From contig JALOTT010000001.1 in NCBI GenBank assembly GCA_025457745.1, positions 1 to 37,592 on the forward strand: a stretch of 37,592 nt of DNA, given 5' to 3'. This stretch comes from Verrucomicrobiota bacterium (GTDB lineage: Bacteria > Verrucomicrobiota > Verrucomicrobiia > Limisphaerales > JADLHS01). Position 1 is the stretch's first letter, and each line of letters starts with the position of its first letter. The notes below the pieces were generated by a model that made no database searches, had not been told where the DNA came from, and saw nothing but the letters and a program-made list of their open reading frames with translations. This document shows, piece after piece, positions 26,410 through 32,197 of the stretch. The position numbers and the translations under genes are program-made.

Positions 26410-26633
26410 GGCTGTGGCTGGTGCGCTGCTTGCGGACGACTTTTTGGACGGGCGCCGTCAACATCGGACGGACCATTTCGGGACTGCTGGCGGGAATTGT
26501 TTTCGTGGACTGGCTTGCAGTCGTGCCGACAGCGCAATTTCCGCAAGTGCTGAACATCACGTTTTTGATTTTGGTTGGCGCGGCGCTGTTGTTTCAACGA
26601 TTCGTTCTGGCCACCCAGCCATTGGCCCTGTAA
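26410..26633 (+). pseudogene. C-terminal membrane fragment resembling a UbiA-family prenyltransferase
   Basis: LWLVRCLR...IGRTISGLLAGIVFVDWLAV...LLFQRFV.AT; no credible start. Confidence 0.4.
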
Positions 26634-26692
26634 TCCGGGCCAAGAAGGAAAGCTTGAACACGCAAGAAGTCTTAGTTAATTTCAATCTGGTT

Positions 26693-28363
26693 ATGACCAC
26701 CGAAGCGCCAGTCAAGTTGACGCACAACGAACAGATCAAAGCCGCGATTCCGACGCTCGCGGGCACGATCACTGCGACCATCGCGGACGAGAGTGCGGAT
26801 CACTTTTCGGAAGACGACAACCAGTTCCTCAAATTCCACGGTTGCTACCAGCAGGACGACCGCGATTTGCGCAAGACGGGCAAGAAATACATCATGATGA
26901 TCCGTGGGCGCATCCCCGGCGGCGTGATGGCACCGAAGCAATGGTGCGTGTTCGACAACCTCTCGACACAATACGGCAACGACACGCTCCGCATCACGAC
27001 GCGCCAGAGCATCCAGTTTCACGGCGTGGTGAAATCCGGTTTGCGTCCGGTGGTGAAAGCCATCAACGAATCGCTGCTCTCCACGCTCGCGGCCTGCGGC
27101 GACGTGAACCGCAACGTCCTCGCCCCGCCGATACCGGCCTACACGAAGGCGCGCCAACAGGTTTATGAGGATTGCGTGCGCGTGGCCGACGCATTGCGCC
27201 CGCAGACCAAGGCATATCACTCGATCTGGATTGATGGCGTGCAACTCAACAACGAAGCACCGGAAAACAAAGACTTCGTGGACCCGCTTTACGGCAAAAC
27301 CTGGCTGCCGCGAAAATTCAAGGTGGCGTTCGCGATTCCGCCCGTCAACGACGTGGACGTGCTGACGAATTGCCTCGGCCTCATCGCCATCGTGGAAAAT
27401 GACAGGCTCGTCGGCTACAATCTCGCGGTCGGCGGCGGTATGGGTCGCAATCACGGCAACGAGGCAACGTACCCACGACTGGCCGACGTGATTGGATTCT
27501 TCACGCCGGACAAAGTCCTGGACGTGGTGAAGGCCGTGCTCACGATTCACCGCGATTTCAGTGACCGCACTGACCGCAAACACGCCCGCCTCAAATACGT
27601 CGTGGCCGAGCGTGGCGTGGATTGGACGCGCGCCGAGGTCGAGCAACGCGCCGGCATCAAGTTCAGCCCCGTCCGCGCCTACAAGTTCACGACGATGAGC
27701 GACCCTTACGGCTGGCACAAAGCCGCGGACGGAAAATGGTTTTTCTCGTTGTTCGTCGAAACGGGCCGCGTCAAAGGCGCGCAGAAAACTGCGTTGCGTC
27801 AGGTCGCGGAAAAATTCCCCGCGATTGAATTCCGTTTGACCACAAACCAGAATGTCGTCCTCGCCAACGTCACCGAAACCGACAAAGCCGCCATCGCCGC
27901 GTTGCTCGCGTCGCACGGCCTGAAAACCGAGAATCAGGCGAGCGTGCTGCGCGCGGCGGCGATGGCTTGTCCCGCGCTGCCCACGTGCGGCCTCGCGCTG
28001 GCGGAGAGCGAGCGCATGTTGCCCGGCCTCGTGGATCGTATCGAAAAACTGTGCGCCGAAGTCGGACTTGCGGGCGAGGAAATCATCATCCGCTCAACCG
28101 GTTGCCCGAACGGCTGCGCGCGGCCTTACATGGCCGAACTCGCGTTCGTCGGCAAAGCGCCGGGACGCTACCAGGTCTGGCTCGGTGGCAACGTTTCAGG
28201 CACGCGGCTCAATCGGGTTTGGAAGGAAATCATGAAGGAAGCGGATTTGGAAACTGAATTACGCCCCTTGCTCGCGCGTTTTGCGAAGGAACGCCCCGCC
28301 GGCGAACGCTTTGGCGATTGGTGCAACCGGGTTTTTCTCAATGAAACCGCCGCCGCTGCTTAA
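26693..28363 (+). CDS. cysI: Assimilatory sulfite reductase hemoprotein (CysI/Sir)
   Basis: KFHGCYQQDDRD, RITTRQ, ACGDVNRN, LPRKFK, ACPALPTCGLA and TGCPNGC siroheme/Fe-S motifs. Confidence 0.95.
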   Translation: MTTEAPVKLTHNEQIKAAIPTLAGTITATIADESADHFSEDDNQFLKFHGCYQQDDRDLRKTGKKYIMMIRGRIPGGVMAPKQWCVFDNLSTQYGNDTLRITTRQSIQFHGVVKSGLRPVVKAINESLLSTLAACGDVNRNVLAPPIPAYTKARQQVYEDCVRVADALRPQTKAYHSIWIDGVQLNNEAPENKDFVDPLYGKTWLPRKFKVAFAIPPVNDVDVLTNCLGLIAIVENDRLVGYNLAVGGGMGRNHGNEATYPRLADVIGFFTPDKVLDVVKAVLTIHRDFSDRTDRKHARLKYVVAERGVDWTRAEVEQRAGIKFSPVRAYKFTTMSDPYGWHKAADGKWFFSLFVETGRVKGAQKTALRQVAEKFPAIEFRLTTNQNVVLANVTETDKAAIAALLASHGLKTENQASVLRAAAMACPALPTCGLALAESERMLPGLVDRIEKLCAEVGLAGEEIIIRSTGCPNGCARPYMAELAFVGKAPGRYQVWLGGNVSGTRLNRVWKEIMKEADLETELRPLLARFAKERPAGERFGDWCNRVFLNETAAAA

Positions 28364-28419
28364 CGGATTTGGGTCATTCCGACGGTCGCAAGCCCCACCG
28401 CAACGCGTCACCTCACACC

Positions 28420-28650
28420 ATGCCCAAAGAAAGACCCTACCGCAGCCTGATCAAAGCGATCTCGTGGCGTGTCACCGGCACGTTGGATACGATCCTGATT
28501 TCGTTCGTGATCACGGGCCAGGCCAGGTTTGCCTTCACCATCGGCTTTGTCGAATTGTTCACGAAGGTCTTTCTCTACTATGTCCATGAGCGGATTTGGG
28601 ACCGTCTGTCCTTTGGCAGAGTCAAGGGCAAGCAAGACTACGAAATCTAG
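28420..28650 (+). CDS. DUF2061 small membrane protein
   Basis: RSLIKAISWRVTGTLDT...K..LYYVHERIW. Confidence 0.9.
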   Translation: MPKERPYRSLIKAISWRVTGTLDTILISFVITGQARFAFTIGFVELFTKVFLYYVHERIWDRLSFGRVKGKQDYEI

Positions 28651-28666
28651 CCGGGGCCACCAACTC

Positions 28667-29338
28667 ATGAACTCCTGGACTCCAGAAACGATCTCCGCCG
28701 CCAACGCGGAGCTGCGCGACAAGTCCGCGCTGGACATCGTAAAGTGGGCCATCGTCCAAGCCAGAGGCCGCGCCATCGTCTCCACAAATTTCCGGCCTTA
28801 CGAAGCCGTCATCCTGCACCTCGCCACACAAGCGCAGCCCGACATCCCGGTACTTTGGGCCGACCACGGCTACAACCGCCCCGCGACCTACAAGCACGCG
28901 GAGCAGTTGAAAAAACAGCTTAAACTCAACCTCAAAGCCTACGTGCCAAGGATGACCGCCGCGCACTACGATGCGATTCACGGCGGCGCGCCCGCGCCCA
29001 CGCCGGAAAACGAGGAGCGCATCAAGGAGTTCAGCGCCGTGATGAAGCTCGAACCGTTTCAGCGCGGCATGAAGGAACTCGCGCCAACCATCTGGCTCAC
29101 CGCGCTCCGCAAGGTGCAGAACCCAAATCGCGCCAATCTCGACATCGTCGTCGCCGACGGCAATTTCAACACGATCAAGGTCAGCCCCGTCTTTTACCGG
29201 AGCGACGCGGACATGGAGAATTATCTCAAGCAACACAACCTGCCAAACGAGTGGGATTACTTCGACCTCGCGAAAGCCGATGAGAAGCGCGAGTGCGGCT
29301 TGCACGCGGCGTGGGGCGGGAAGGCCTTAGAAAATTAG
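28667..29338 (+). CDS. cysH: PAPS/APS reductase lacking the Fe-S cysteines
   Basis: WADHGY, KLEPF and C-terminal ECGLH motifs; sulfate-assimilation operon context. Confidence 0.9.
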   Translation: MNSWTPETISAANAELRDKSALDIVKWAIVQARGRAIVSTNFRPYEAVILHLATQAQPDIPVLWADHGYNRPATYKHAEQLKKQLKLNLKAYVPRMTAAHYDAIHGGAPAPTPENEERIKEFSAVMKLEPFQRGMKELAPTIWLTALRKVQNPNRANLDIVVADGNFNTIKVSPVFYRSDADMENYLKQHNLPNEWDYFDLAKADEKRECGLHAAWGGKALEN

Positions 29339-29775
29339 ACACGGATTTCACGGATTATCACGGATTCATTTATGCCAGAACTGCTTTATCGCGAGGAGAC
29401 GCGGCAACTCATCGGCTTTTGCATGGAAATTCATCGTGAATTGGGCAAGGGACATGATGAAGTCATCTACAAGGATGCGTTGGTGGTGGAATTGAGCCGG
29501 GCAAACATTCCGATCGCCCGCGAAAACAAATACGAAGTGAAATACAAGGGTGTGGTTCTCCCTCATTCCTATCGGGCGGACTTCGTGATCTGGAACAAAG
29601 TGTTGTTTGAAGCGAAAGCGGTAGAGGCGCTGACCGACGCCCACATCAAACAGGTTTTGAACTATCTGGCCGCGTCCAAGCTCCGGCTGGGATTGCTTGT
29701 TAATTTCGGCGCCGATTCACTAGAATGGAAGCGCGTCATTTTATGAATCCGTGTCAATCCGTGAAATCCGTGTCT
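29337..29775. mobile_element. Candidate minimal mobile unit: GxxExxY gene between 33-bp inverted repeats
   Basis: Left 29337-29369 AGACACGGATTTCACGGATTATCACGGATTCAT; the reverse complement of 29743-29775 matches at 31/33 positions. Confidence 0.7.
29372..29746 (+). CDS. GxxExxY protein (PD-(D/E)XK nuclease superfamily)
   Basis: HRELGKGHDEVIY, ADFVI..KVLFEAKA, QVLNYL and GLLVNFG motifs. Confidence 0.95.
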   Translation: MPELLYREETRQLIGFCMEIHRELGKGHDEVIYKDALVVELSRANIPIARENKYEVKYKGVVLPHSYRADFVIWNKVLFEAKAVEALTDAHIKQVLNYLAASKLRLGLLVNFGADSLEWKRVIL

Positions 29776-29777
29776 CA

Positions 29778-30713
29778 ATGAGTTCGTATCACCTGGATCA
29801 CCTGCAGTTTCTGGAGACGGAAGCGATTCACATCATGCGTGAAGTCGCCGGCGAATTTGAGCGCCCATCGCTCTTGTTTTCGGGCGGCAAGGATTCCATC
29901 TGCCTGCTACGCCTCGCGGAGAAGGCCTTTCGTCCGTCGGACATTCCGGTGCCGTTTCTCAACATCGAAACCGGCCACGAATTTCCCGAGTTGCTGGAAT
30001 TCCGTGATCGCCGCGCGAAAGAACTCGGCGCGAAGCTCATCGTTCGCACGGTGGAGGAAGCCATTGCCAAGGGCGCCGTTCCAGCGCCCGGCGAGGTCAG
30101 CCGCAACAAGCTTCAAATTCCCGCTTTGCTGGGCGCGATCGAGGAATTCCGGTTCGATTGTTGCATCGGCGGCGCGCGGCGCGATGAGGAAAAGGCCCGC
30201 GCTAAGGAACGGTTTTTCAGTCCGCGCGACAACTTCGGCCAGTGGGATCCTAAAACCCAACGGCCGGAAATCTGGAATCTTTACAATGCCCGGCTGAACA
30301 CCGGCGAAAACATGCGGGTGTTTCCGCTGTCGAACTGGACGGAAATGGACGTTTGGCAGTACATCAAGAAGGAAAACCTCGCCGTGCCGAGCATCTACTT
30401 CAGTCACGAGCGCGAGTGCTTCCGCCGCAATGGGCAATGGCTGCCGGTCCCGCCACCGCACACTAATTCGTCCAGGCCCGATCCTTACGACGGTGCGCGG
30501 CCGAAACCGAACGAGCAACGCGCCCAGCTTGTCGTCCGCGTGCGCACCATTGCCGACATGATCAGCACCGGCATGATCGAATCCCGCGCGGACAGCGTGG
30601 ACGACATCATTGTCGAAGTCGCCGCCGCGCGCGTAACTGAACGCGGCTCGCGCGCCGATGACAAAGCCAGCGAAGCGGCGATGGAAGACCGGAAGAAAGC
30701 CGGTTATTTTTAA
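29778..30713 (+). CDS. cysD: Sulfate adenylyltransferase subunit 2
   Basis: LFSGGKDS, GGARRDEEKARAKERFFS, WDPKTQRPE, RVFPLSNWTE and MEDRKKAGYF motifs. Confidence 0.96.
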   Translation: MSSYHLDHLQFLETEAIHIMREVAGEFERPSLLFSGGKDSICLLRLAEKAFRPSDIPVPFLNIETGHEFPELLEFRDRRAKELGAKLIVRTVEEAIAKGAVPAPGEVSRNKLQIPALLGAIEEFRFDCCIGGARRDEEKARAKERFFSPRDNFGQWDPKTQRPEIWNLYNARLNTGENMRVFPLSNWTEMDVWQYIKKENLAVPSIYFSHERECFRRNGQWLPVPPPHTNSSRPDPYDGARPKPNEQRAQLVVRVRTIADMISTGMIESRADSVDDIIVEVAAARVTERGSRADDKASEAAMEDRKKAGYF

Positions 30714-30864
30714 CCACTAATGGACACGAATATACACGAATCAATTTTTGCAGGTAGGGCGCGTCACTCCGTGCGCGCCGATCACACGAGACCAAACCCC
30801 GGCGCGCACGGAGTGACGCGCCCTGCCAAGAATAGTTCGCGTCCATTCGTGTTCATTCGTGGTT
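30712..30864. repeat. Gene-less inverted pair of 10-bp tandem-unit arms (GxxExxY-flank-like MITE) enclosing a family A element
   Basis: Left AACCACTAATGGACACGAATATACACGAAT (30712-30741); right arm 30835-30864, reverse complement AACCACGAATGAACACGAATGGACGCGAAC. Confidence 0.85.
30753..30827. repeat. REPIN-like element family A, intergenic copy
   Basis: GGTAGGGCGCGTCACTCCGTGCGCGCCG / CGGCGCGCACGGAGTGACGCGCCCTGCC, 28-bp arms with one mismatch. Confidence 0.95.
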
Positions 30865-30877
30865 GAGCTTATTTCCC

Positions 30878-32197
30878 ATGCCCCACACGCAACATCCCAT
30901 CGAAATTTTGAGGTTCAACACCTGTGGTTCGGTGGACGACGGCAAATCCACGCTCATTGGCCGTCTGCTCTACGACTCGAAATCGTTAATGGAAGACCAG
31001 CTTGAGACGTTGGAAAAATCCGCCGACATCACCGGTGGCGGCCAAATCAACCTCGCCAACCTGACCGACGGACTCCGCGCCGAGCGCGAGCAGGGCATCA
31101 CGATTGACGTGGCGTATCGTTACTTCGCCACGCCCCGCCGCAAATTCATCGTCGCCGACACGCCGGGCCACGTGCAATACACGCGCAACATGGTCACCGG
31201 CTCGTCCACCGCAAACCTCTCCGTCGTGCTCGTGGACGCGCGACAGGGCGTCATCGAGCAGAGCCGCCGCCACACGTTCATCGCGGCGACGCTCGGCATT
31301 CCTCACTTGGTCATCGCCGTCAACAAAATGGATTTGGTGGGTTGGGATCGGGAGCGATTTCTTGAAATACGCGACGACTTCGAGGCTTTCCTGCCACGCC
31401 TCGACATCTTCAAGGACGTGAAGTTCATTCCCATCAGCGCGCTTAACGGCGACAACGTCGTTGACCCCTCGGCGCACACGCCGTGGTATGAAGGCCCGAC
31501 GCTGCTCCGCCATCTGGAAAACGTGCACATCGCCAGCGACTGGAACATGAGCGCGTTCCGTTTTCCCGTGCAGTGGGTTAACCGCCCATACAATCCGACG
31601 AACCCGGAGCTTCACGACTTTCGCGGACTCAGCGGACAAATCGCGGGCGGCATCGTCAAAGTCGGACAAAAGGTTTTGGTGTTGCCCAGCAGCCTCAAGA
31701 CCACGGTGAAACAAATCTGGACGCTCGACGGCCCGCTGCCGGAAGCCTTCTGCCCGCAATCCGTCACGCTCGTGCTGGAACACGACCTCGACGTGAGCCG
31801 CGGCGACATGCTCATCGGCCCGGAAAACCTGCCGGGCATGAGCGCGGACTTGCAGGCGCGGATTTGCTGGATGCACCCCCGCGCGTTGCAGGCCGGTCGG
31901 AAATTCTTCCTCAAGCACACCACGCAGACCGTGCAAGCCGTCGTCACTCGCCTCGAAAACCGCGTGAACATTCATACCTTCGACCCCGAACCCGACCCGG
32001 CGGAACTGGCATTGAATGATCTGGGTGAAGTCCGCTTGAAGACCGCCAAGCCGCTGGTATTCGACGGCTATAACATCAACCGGCTCACGGGCGCGTTCAT
32101 TCTCATGGAGCAGGGCACGAACGCCACGGTCGCGGCGGGCATGCTCAATTCACCCAGCGAATTGGTGAAGCCCGAATACACTGACTTCGCCATCTAG
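30878..32197 (+). CDS. cysN: Sulfate adenylyltransferase subunit 1 (no fused CysC)
   Basis: CGSVDDGKSTLIGRLL, AEREQGITIDVAY, DTPGHVQYTRNM, NKMD and SALNGDNV motifs. Confidence 0.96.
   Translation: MPHTQHPIEILRFNTCGSVDDGKSTLIGRLLYDSKSLMEDQLETLEKSADITGGGQINLANLTDGLRAEREQGITIDVAYRYFATPRRKFIVADTPGHVQYTRNMVTGSSTANLSVVLVDARQGVIEQSRRHTFIAATLGIPHLVIAVNKMDLVGWDRERFLEIRDDFEAFLPRLDIFKDVKFIPISALNGDNVVDPSAHTPWYEGPTLLRHLENVHIASDWNMSAFRFPVQWVNRPYNPTNPELHDFRGLSGQIAGGIVKVGQKVLVLPSSLKTTVKQIWTLDGPLPEAFCPQSVTLVLEHDLDVSRGDMLIGPENLPGMSADLQARICWMHPRALQAGRKFFLKHTTQTVQAVVTRLENRVNIHTFDPEPDPAELALNDLGEVRLKTAKPLVFDGYNINRLTGAFILMEQGTNATVAAGMLNSPSELVKPEYTDFAI

Follow-up and report, generated by a model that had tools for sequence, protein, structure and literature searches.

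A GxxExxY gene enclosed by inverted arrays of short repeat units in the sulfate-assimilation operon of a Verrucomicrobiota bacterium resembles the intervening sequences of 23S rRNA in build

The closest described counterparts of the element treated here are the intervening sequences (IVSs) of bacterial 23S rRNA. According to the available part of one source, the IVS of Coxiella burnetii measures 428–444 nt, forms a 28-bp stem, carries an S23p open reading frame (ORF) in its loop and is excised by RNase III; the same text reports that this ORF is decaying and lists competing hypotheses on the origin and mobility of IVSs (PMC4990558). The question of their origin and mobility goes back to about 1990. 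Genes of the corresponding family, 23S_rRNA_IVP (PF05635), also lie inside cas operons, for example between cmr3 and cmr2, and are interpreted as cas-associated in the section of the source that deals with them (PMC3936711); others are mentioned, in an excerpt of a further source, within rRNA insertions of bacteria of the candidate phyla radiation (CPR) (PMC11270868). Here, we describe an element of similar build in a stretch of DNA of 37,592 nucleotides (the window) from a Verrucomicrobiota bacterium (assembly GCA_025457745.1, contig JALOTT010000001.1). In this window, a gene of the GxxExxY family (PDDEXK_3) is boxed by two inverted arms and inserted between cysH and cysD in a sulfate-assimilation cluster. 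We refer to the gene with its arms as the cassette, and to the gene as its cargo. GxxExxY/PDDEXK_3 is a very large family without known function, comprising 11,788 clusters at 50% identity with E ≤ 0.001. On balance, we lean slightly toward the reading that the cassette is an old, vertically inherited copy of a widespread IVS-like hairpin-cassette family whose protein binds its own arms.

The whole cassette is 439 bp long. Its left arm (29337–29369, plus strand; AGACACGGATTTCACGGATTATCACGGATTCAT) and right arm (29743–29775, minus strand) are 33 nt each, stand 373 nt apart, and are complementary at 31 of 33 positions (94%). The left arm is made of three CACGGATT units that start at 29340, 29349 and 29359, so that the spacing is 9 and then 10, and has the outer tip AGACAC; the right arm holds three units of the same type on the minus strand, which read AATCCGTG at 29746, 29756 and 29765 and are spaced by 10 and then 9. 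Both mismatches between the arms fall in the spacer between units 2 and 3. The sole sizeable sense ORF between the arms is the cargo gene itself (29372–29746, plus strand, 124 aa). The fit to the neighbouring genes is tight: the left arm covers the last two bases of the cysH stop codon TAG (29336–29338), the stop codon TGA of the cargo (29744–29746) lies inside the right arm, and only 2 nt separate the end of the right arm (29775) from the cysD ATG at 29778. The initial annotation had described a unit that holds only the gene and two arms, the three units per arm at 9–10 bp, and the overlap of the arms with both stop codons up to the cysD start, and recomputation of the coordinates and unit positions agreed with it in every detail. 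A scan for flanking inverted matches in the source genome showed that 24 of 3503 testable ORFs had a score of at least 14, and that only four reached the score of the cassette, 28.

In order to follow the junction in related genomes, we examined the cysD regions of 30 genomes from the same family and order, in all of which the positions of the four genes were determined; the cysH–cysD junction could be assessed in 29 of them. A GxxExxY cassette with CACGGATT arms occupied the junction in four genomes, namely the source genome, a genome of the same genus (92% amino acid identity), and genomes of two other genera (78% and 84%). A PF05635 gene (E 4.6e-24 to 1.3e-27) was found at the junction in another four. 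Nine junctions contained a gene-less hairpin of 64–195 bp with units of the CCACGGATG, CGCAGATG, ACAGATG or GGAGATAG type, and hairpins were nested within hairpins at some of them (L019, L025); one held another filling of 146 bp. The remaining 11 junctions were short, with only −1 to 48 bp between the genes. In a tree of cysD nucleotide sequences, the four cassette genomes fell into one clade of 15 members (99% support), together with seven short junctions, three hairpins and one PF05635 gene. The cysH–cysD junction is a turnover hot spot, and we consider it highly probable that the cassette is a true insertion and a member of a hairpin-cassette family. The possibility of a homing endonuclease that cuts the empty site was also considered, and was ruled out because close relatives of the protein occupy unrelated junctions. 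When the short junctions were inspected by eye, unit-like remnants (CCATCCTCCATCC, CGTGGTTAA, ACAGGGATTA and GGAAGAT...CTATCTCC) were seen in L023, L030, L031, L033, L018 and L014, and may have been left behind by cassettes or hairpins that were lost.

We also analyzed how widely such arms accompany genes of this family. Matches to PF13366 were present in 105 of 201 sampled Verrucomicrobiota genomes, with 1–12 matches each, and the 30 best loci, one per genome, served as a phylum sample. The flanking inverted match scored at least 15 at 23 of these 30 loci, versus 5 of 551 small control ORFs of the source genome. Four of the five high-scoring controls were PF05635 genes, and the fifth was a Y1-transposase-like ORF with ordinary repetitive extragenic palindromes (REPs). 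The source genome itself has six PF13366 matches at five loci, and arrays of short units are present on every flank that a contig end does not truncate, so that the inspection of other GxxExxY flanks suggested by the initial annotation found arms both within the genome and across the phylum. The units of the copies in the source genome differ from each other (CACGGATT, CACGGATG, CACGAATG, an 8-nt CGCAAAG type and the 17-nt CCAACGGATGAAAAGTG), and the arms of the phylum sample have in common AACCAC or AACCGC as their outer tip and units of the form C[AG]C-NNNN about every 9 nt. Among the 3503 ORFs scanned in the source genome, arms composed of unit arrays boxed only GxxExxY and PF05635 genes; the arm–gene–arm layout is specific to these two families, the second of which was found in 75 of 121 sampled genomes. 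Integron cassettes have one site each, whereas here every gene stands between inverted arms, and an interpretation as such cassettes was rejected on this ground. The literature searches, which covered papers but not their supplementary tables, yielded no account of repeat arrays around GxxExxY genes.

Arms without a gene are far more common than complete cassettes. Arms with at least two C[AG]CG[AG]A[TA] units occurred 103 times in the source genome (40 of them with three units), versus 6 times in a shuffled genome, and 12 clear pairs of plus- and minus-strand arms enclose only 17–116 nt and are gene-less hairpins. The gene-carrying copies with ACGRAT units amount to one complete copy and two that are cut by contig ends. 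The other GxxExxY genes of the genome that are cut in this way, three in number, lie at C248:1-291, C430:16-354 and C340:1-285, and because of these three genes we suggest that the cassettes or their arms break short-read assemblies. A candidate excision product was also evaluated: the joints 29362>29745 and 29366>29748 appeared in contigs of four DNA runs, with 16–18 foreign letters between the joined ends and 25–27 letters on each side, and we interpret them as gene-less hairpins from elsewhere in the genome or from other organisms rather than as products of excision.

The spacing of the units, measured in the flanks from each copy of the most frequent 6-mer to the next, differed according to the enclosed protein. 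For single-domain GxxExxY proteins, 47 of 58 spacings were 8–10 nt and none was 7. Tandem-fused proteins with two GxxExxY domains (262–279 aa) were found at 11 loci, L193–L202 and C371:9246-10061 of the source genome, and here all 16 spacings were 15–25 nt, mostly 17–18, with none at 8–10. In all nine two-domain proteins examined, the E-x-K motif is kept in the N-terminal half and lost in the C-terminal half. At C371:9246-10061, an arm in the same sense follows the gene and the inverted arm lies further downstream. For PF05635 genes, 38 of the 64 spacings measured in the phylum sample, and 27 of the 28 in the source genome, were 7 nt or a multiple of it. The type of unit also followed the protein: mapped onto the protein tree of the 30 phylum copies, it required 13 changes (the minimum is 10), with a mean of 21.1 for shuffled labels and none of 200 shuffles as low. 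In a comparison on the protein tree, 12 changes sufficed for unit type but 18 were required for host family; CAC[GA][GA]AA units are common to a clade with 100% support that spans five host families, and three unit types occur within a single host family. These patterns indicate that the spacing and the sequence of the units follow the cargo protein and not the host. Such correlations show co-inheritance under selection, and not binding. The initial annotation had suggested that the protein recognises these arms and mobilises the unit; the first part gains indirect support, in that the spacing scales with the architecture of the cargo and the unit type tracks the protein lineage, and mobilisation by the protein is an inference.

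The identity of the cargo is clear at the level of family and fold. The 124-aa protein matched PF13366 PDDEXK_3 with E 1.4e-35 (122.6 bits, curated cut-off 22) and TIGR04256 GxxExxY with E 2.7e-39 (134.1 bits, curated cut-off 35). It contains the G-x-x-E-x-x-Y motif (G27, E30 and Y33) and the catalytic D...E-x-K of the PD-(D/E)XK fold (D70, E80 and K82), and these residues correspond to near-invariant columns among 51 family sequences. An AlphaFold model (pLDDT 94.1, pTM 0.85) showed a PD-(D/E)XK fold, and the best structural matches were all PD-(D/E)XK nucleases, which upholds the fold that the initial annotation had assigned to GxxExxY proteins. The nearest solved chain was Cas4 SSO0001 (4ic1), with a Foldseek E of 3.3e-5, a VIA Z of 8.0 and a root-mean-square deviation (rmsd) of 3.6 over 99 aligned residues; further matches were nuclease domains of restriction enzymes, MGME1 and Hjc (Z 6.3). 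Among the 51 family members, other profiles also gave matches, namely Phage_endo_I in 6 (best E 1.3e-5), HSDR_N_2 in 9 and Cas4 in 6. The cargo has no iron–sulfur cluster motif and no extra domain. It is likely a nuclease, as judged from the model and its matches; no specific enzyme class could be assigned to it, because the matches are generic PD-(D/E)XK matches with Z ≤ 8.0.

These observations can be arranged into the following mechanism, which elaborates the preferred reading of an inherited hairpin cassette with an arm-binding protein. The cassette sits in sense orientation exactly between the stop codon of one operon gene and the start codon of the next. We consider it fairly probable that the protein loads on its own arms, with one domain per unit. 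Binding would occur side by side on a duplex nucleic acid, most simply DNA, and such binding along the duplex would lead to one core motif per ~9 nt per domain, as found. The estimated width of a four-helix bundle is ~24 Å, and that of a 125-residue domain is ~30 Å. The protein–arm complex, in which the nuclease site would cut, may then mediate insertion, excision or maintenance of the cassette, with the nuclease acting on paired or extruded arms, and the same complex may also lie behind the gene-less hairpin derivatives; that the protein itself catalyses movement in this way is doubtful, and we place it clearly below an even chance. In the operon transcript, the 33-bp stem might bring the cysH stop next to the cysD start, so that the insertion would be harmless to the operon, or the stem might be processed as in an IVS. 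A broader proposal is that GxxExxY and S23p (PF05635) cassettes, the classical 23S rRNA IVSs included, form a single, hitherto undescribed class of selfish elements in prokaryotes that has two branches. A small protein would cover the inverted arms of its own element in a phased array, each domain occupying one unit, and the resulting nucleoprotein hairpin or cruciform would insert without a conventional transposase. The width of the protein would determine the repeat period (7, ~9 or ~18 bp), and the protein-coated hairpin or cruciform would insert at stop–start junctions and at the tips of rRNA helices. We offer this proposal tentatively, as one that falls only a little short of being an even bet.

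The arms also pair in a predicted RNA fold. When the 466-nt stretch was folded as RNA, it closed through the arms, with a minimum free energy (MFE) of −162.3 kcal/mol and a z of −3.83, and none of 100 shuffled sequences was as stable; the folded arms formed three 8-bp helices separated by small internal loops. No RNA run was found to contain the stretch. The cassette could be an IVS that works through RNA only: the arms would form a long double-stranded RNA stem that is cut by RNase III, which releases or inactivates the insert, and the GxxExxY protein would be a passenger that has another function and does not touch the arms. The neighbours of cassettes are co-oriented in 22 of 26 cases upstream and 25 of 29 downstream, with median gaps of ~11 and ~21 nt, as expected of elements on read-through transcripts; RNase III cuts the Coxiella IVS, an element of matching size and layout, according to the part of the source available (PMC4990558); and PF05635 cassettes occupy the same junction in relatives. 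However, a stem for RNase III needs complementarity and not a particular sequence. Over 30 orthologues, 81.7% of the cells were paired, the columns of the units hardly varied, and the spacer columns were unpaired in 17, 20, 25 and 26 of the 30, the spacer mismatches being conserved among the orthologues. Because the units are near-invariant while the spacers stay unpaired, it is the unit sequence on both arms, rather than full complementarity, that is conserved. Covariation was weak (22 cells changed on both sides versus 15.6 in shuffles, a value reached by 17 of 500 shuffles), and mismatches in the arms showed no sense-strand excess of G-U over A-C, either among close relatives (33 vs. 20, p 0.098) or in the phylum sample (14 vs. 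16). Moreover, a passenger protein does not predict that the spacing depends on the cargo or that the unit type follows the protein lineage. We therefore regard an RNA-only element as unlikely.

The age of this copy was estimated from a scan of species-representative genomes, which yielded 118 relatives of the cargo protein; the best 80 (74–92% amino acid identity) were analyzed. The closest relatives were all from metagenome-assembled Verrucomicrobiota, Limisphaerales or Pedosphaera-like. About 29 of the best 80 lay at cysH–cysD, 27 by adjacency and two partly, or 28–29 when judged by shared flank clusters, the flanks of the 80 forming nine upstream and nine downstream clusters. The other 51 were found in about eight further contexts, with CGCGAATT or CACGAATT units. 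The median dN/dS of the cargo was 0.058 over 24 orthologue pairs, where the median dS of ~1.6 is saturated, and that of cysH was 0.123 (16 pairs). In the alignment of 30 orthologous copies the arm units were near-invariant. These results show that the copy at cysH–cysD is old and has been vertically stable for a long time, and that the gene and the arm units are under strong purifying selection. They bear on the initial annotation, which had called the unit a candidate mobile element: a discrete insertion is supported by the short or otherwise filled junctions and by the eight or so other contexts, and recent mobility of this copy is not supported, given the synteny and the dN/dS of 0.06. Stable cysH–cysD synteny and a lack of arms at other GxxExxY genes had together been named as evidence against that proposal. 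The synteny was indeed found within a sub-clade, since about 29 of the best 80 relatives are syntenic with saturated dS, and the lack of arms was not, as 23 of 30 loci have them.

The same data are what would be expected of a domesticated resident, that is, a gene that entered once long ago and now serves the host, for example as a repair or defence nuclease, while its arms, in the role of operator or regulatory arrays, control the expression of the gene itself or of cysD and the whole is immobile. Its lower dN/dS than that of cysH and the retention of the arms while synonymous sites are saturated would suit such a gene, as would the synteny. This account has difficulty with the junction in sister genomes, where at least four other kinds of occupant occur and 11 junctions are short, with the close paralogues in other contexts, and with the numerous and nested gene-less arms. 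In addition, no defence family was matched in PADLOC, in which the only hit was Cas4b at E ~0.02. We judge domestication to be improbable, somewhat more so than the RNA-only element.

The genome also encodes a different type of repeat-associated enzyme. It contains 10 matches to PF01797 (Y1_Tnp), and gene-less doublets far outnumber gene-carrying ones, so that the arrays might be moved in trans by a Y1 HUH transposase encoded elsewhere, as with REPs and REP-associated tyrosine transposases (RAYTs), the GxxExxY gene having merely landed in a repeat doublet. The Y1 gene on contig C316, however, is bracketed by a different, GC-rich palindromic repeat, the unit-array arms box only the two families named above, and the spacing and sequence of the arms follow the enclosed protein; movement by a Y1 transposase is very unlikely. 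The C316 gene (C316:13308-13766) is an ORF of 152 aa that matches Y1_Tnp (PF01797, E 2.7e-6) and is flanked by inverted copies of the palindrome TGTAGCGGCGGTCTATGACCGCCGCA; it looks like an ordinary REP/RAYT system that coexists with the unit-array cassettes. A chance inverted repeat or an assembly artefact, for which the fragmentation of the assembly and the position of three other GxxExxY genes at contig ends could be cited, is practically negligible and is refuted by the orthologous copies, as the same cassette with arms stands at the same junction in independently assembled genomes, contigs from public runs span both borders, and so few ORFs match the cassette's score.

Several observations weigh against an arm-binding protein in an inherited hairpin cassette. 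First, the unit lacks some hallmarks of a mobile element: no direct repeat was found outside the arms, here or in orthologues, so that, as the initial annotation had also remarked, no target-site duplication is evident, and no recognised transposase (DDE, serine or tyrosine) or recombinase is encoded in the unit, whose only ORF is the PD-(D/E)XK protein. Second, the layout is not uniform. A simple inverted box (score ≥ 14) was present in only 42 of the best 80 relatives, 24 at the cys site and 18 of 56 other loci, and 7 of the 30 GxxExxY loci of the phylum sample scored below 15, most of these low-scoring loci showing unit arrays on at least one side. Layouts other than the box were seen in L127, L129, L134, L139 and L155 (context 1) and in L132–L180 (context 2), where an arm in the same sense follows the gene and an inverted arm comes after it, or the arms face outward, so that the gene seems to stand between two hairpins. 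The arms of PF05635 genes are also less complementary, with scores of at least 15 at 9 of 27 loci and at least 12 at 16 of 27. Third, the correlations of spacing and unit type with the protein involve related sequences that share their labels by kinship, the physical linkage of arms to their gene limits the correlation for unit type, and the two-domain proteins may be one lineage and thus represent few independent events. Fourth, the structural matches of the cargo are generic, with none standing out and no Z above 8.0; T7 endonuclease I was not among the top 50 fold matches, and it was the best sequence match among solved structures at a non-significant E of 0.23–0.39. Fifth, the resolution of the cysD tree is low, with 5 of its 27 inner branches starred, and the tree allows a single gain with several losses, the junction states being no more clustered on it than shuffled labels; the apparent long immobility of this copy, syntenic in about 29 genomes at species level where dS is saturated, would suit a domesticated gene just as well. 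Finally, all steps of the mechanism are deduced, and no binding, cleavage, excision or insertion event was observed.

The cassette belongs to a sulfate-assimilation cluster in the window, which is contig C493 of an assembly of 567 contigs and 4.37 Mb. The cluster consists of a sulfite reductase gene (26414–28363), a DUF2061 gene (28369–28650), cysH, the GxxExxY ORF, cysD and cysN. The upstream host gene cysH (28664–29338, plus strand) encodes a phosphoadenosine/adenosine phosphosulfate (PAPS/APS) reductase (PF01507, 7.2e-25; PRK02090, 5.4e-39); its start at 28664 was deduced from the alignment starts of relatives, and the open frame itself begins at 28529. The downstream host gene cysD (29778–30713, plus strand) encodes sulfate adenylyltransferase subunit 2 (NF003587, 9.9e-122), and cysN (30863–32197, plus strand) encodes subunit 1 (TIGR02034, 2.7e-161), starting either with TTG at 30863 or with the in-frame ATG at 30878; relatives align from residues 3–11. 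Searches with Rfam over 28300–31000 gave nothing relevant, only a chance miRNA match (E 0.43), and none at threshold at 15 other cassette loci of the genome. No 23S gene was found in this fragmented assembly.

The gap between cysD and cysN is filled by a gene-less hairpin element (30714–30862) with arms at 30714–30741 (CCACTAATGGACACGAATATACACGAAT) and 30836–30862, and a GC-rich palindromic repeat (30753–30780 and 30800–30827), which is also present at 334–356 of the window, is nested in its loop. The core of this palindrome, AGGGCGCGTCACTCCGTGCGCGC, occurs in 325 copies (≤ 3 substitutions, both strands) on 155 contigs of the genome; the depth of metagenome contigs over it is more than 100 times that of the neighbours. 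Across 27 relatives, the cysD–cysN gap ranges from −12 to 809 bp, and three of them have PF05635 cassettes there. An insert of ~800 bp is present in this gap in three relatives (L024:2450-3234, L025:689-1240 and L012); in this insert, a small antitoxin-like ORF lies ahead of the gene for a DUF6036 nucleotidyltransferase-like protein, and no repeat arms were seen around it. The gap of L009 holds a ribbon-helix-helix (RHH) protein. These inserts look like a colonisation of the cysD–cysN junction by systems of the toxin–antitoxin type.

At this one operon junction, the two cargo families are both found with repeat-array hairpins of one type. If the reading as a single class is true, it would explain the origin of IVSs and would give a function to more than 11,000 protein clusters. 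The cargo-dependent periodicity of the arms allows the loose notion of a role for the ORF in mobility to be recast as specific predictions on stoichiometry and spacing. For annotation, cassettes of this kind matter in that they split operons, rewrite the stop and start contexts of neighbouring genes and, it seems, break assemblies.

Comparison with known systems places the cassette as follows. With the PD-(D/E)XK nucleases (Cas4 4ic1, Hjc, type II restriction enzymes and T7 endonuclease I), the cargo shares the fold and the catalytic E...D...E-x-K. In REP/REPIN systems with RAYTs of the Y1 HUH type, a single-copy gene is bracketed by inverted repeats, gene-less doublets are more numerous, and inheritance is vertical over the long term. 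The cassette has in common with them a gene between inverted units, many gene-less doublets in the genome and long-term vertical inheritance; unlike them, it encodes a PD-(D/E)XK and not an HUH enzyme, and its arms are tandem phased units and not single palindromes. A Y1 gene flanked by the repeats, which defines these systems, is absent here: the enclosed gene is PF13366, and the Y1 gene on C316 has another palindrome. Miniature inverted-repeat transposable elements (MITEs) such as the Correia elements of Neisseria are short, bounded by inverted repeats, located at gene junctions and co-transcribed, and can form RNA stems. The cassette family is likewise bounded by inverted repeats at gene junctions, can form RNA stems and has gene-less forms of 80–200 bp, whereas the cassette lacks a target-site duplication, has arms of repeated units and, in a subset, a dedicated small gene.

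The 23S_rRNA_IVP genes of cas operons are similar in that a small gene of the IVS family is wedged between operon genes; they differ from the cassette in cargo family, and arms are not mentioned in the part of the source available (PMC3936711). The 23S rRNA IVSs themselves (Coxiella burnetii, Leptospira; S23p/PF05635) are the most similar in build: they share with the cassette a length of ~430–440 nt, terminal inverted repeats that form a stem of ~28–33 bp, one small sense ORF in the loop without a transposase, and a sporadic distribution combined with vertical persistence. A direct link is provided by the four relatives in which PF05635 genes of the same layout occupy cysH–cysD. In contrast to IVSs, the cassette lies between the protein-coding genes cysH and cysD and not in a helix of 23S rRNA, its cargo is a PD-(D/E)XK protein (PF13366) and not the four-helix bundle S23p, and its arms are phased units of conserved sequence with unpaired spacers. 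Its cargo is under strong purifying selection, whereas the Coxiella ORF is described as decaying in the accessible part of the source (PMC4990558). Because it has neither the location in rRNA nor the S23p cargo, we do not count the cassette as a member of the IVSs; judged from its sequence, it appears to be IVS-like in build, yet a variant outside 23S rRNA with a different cargo.

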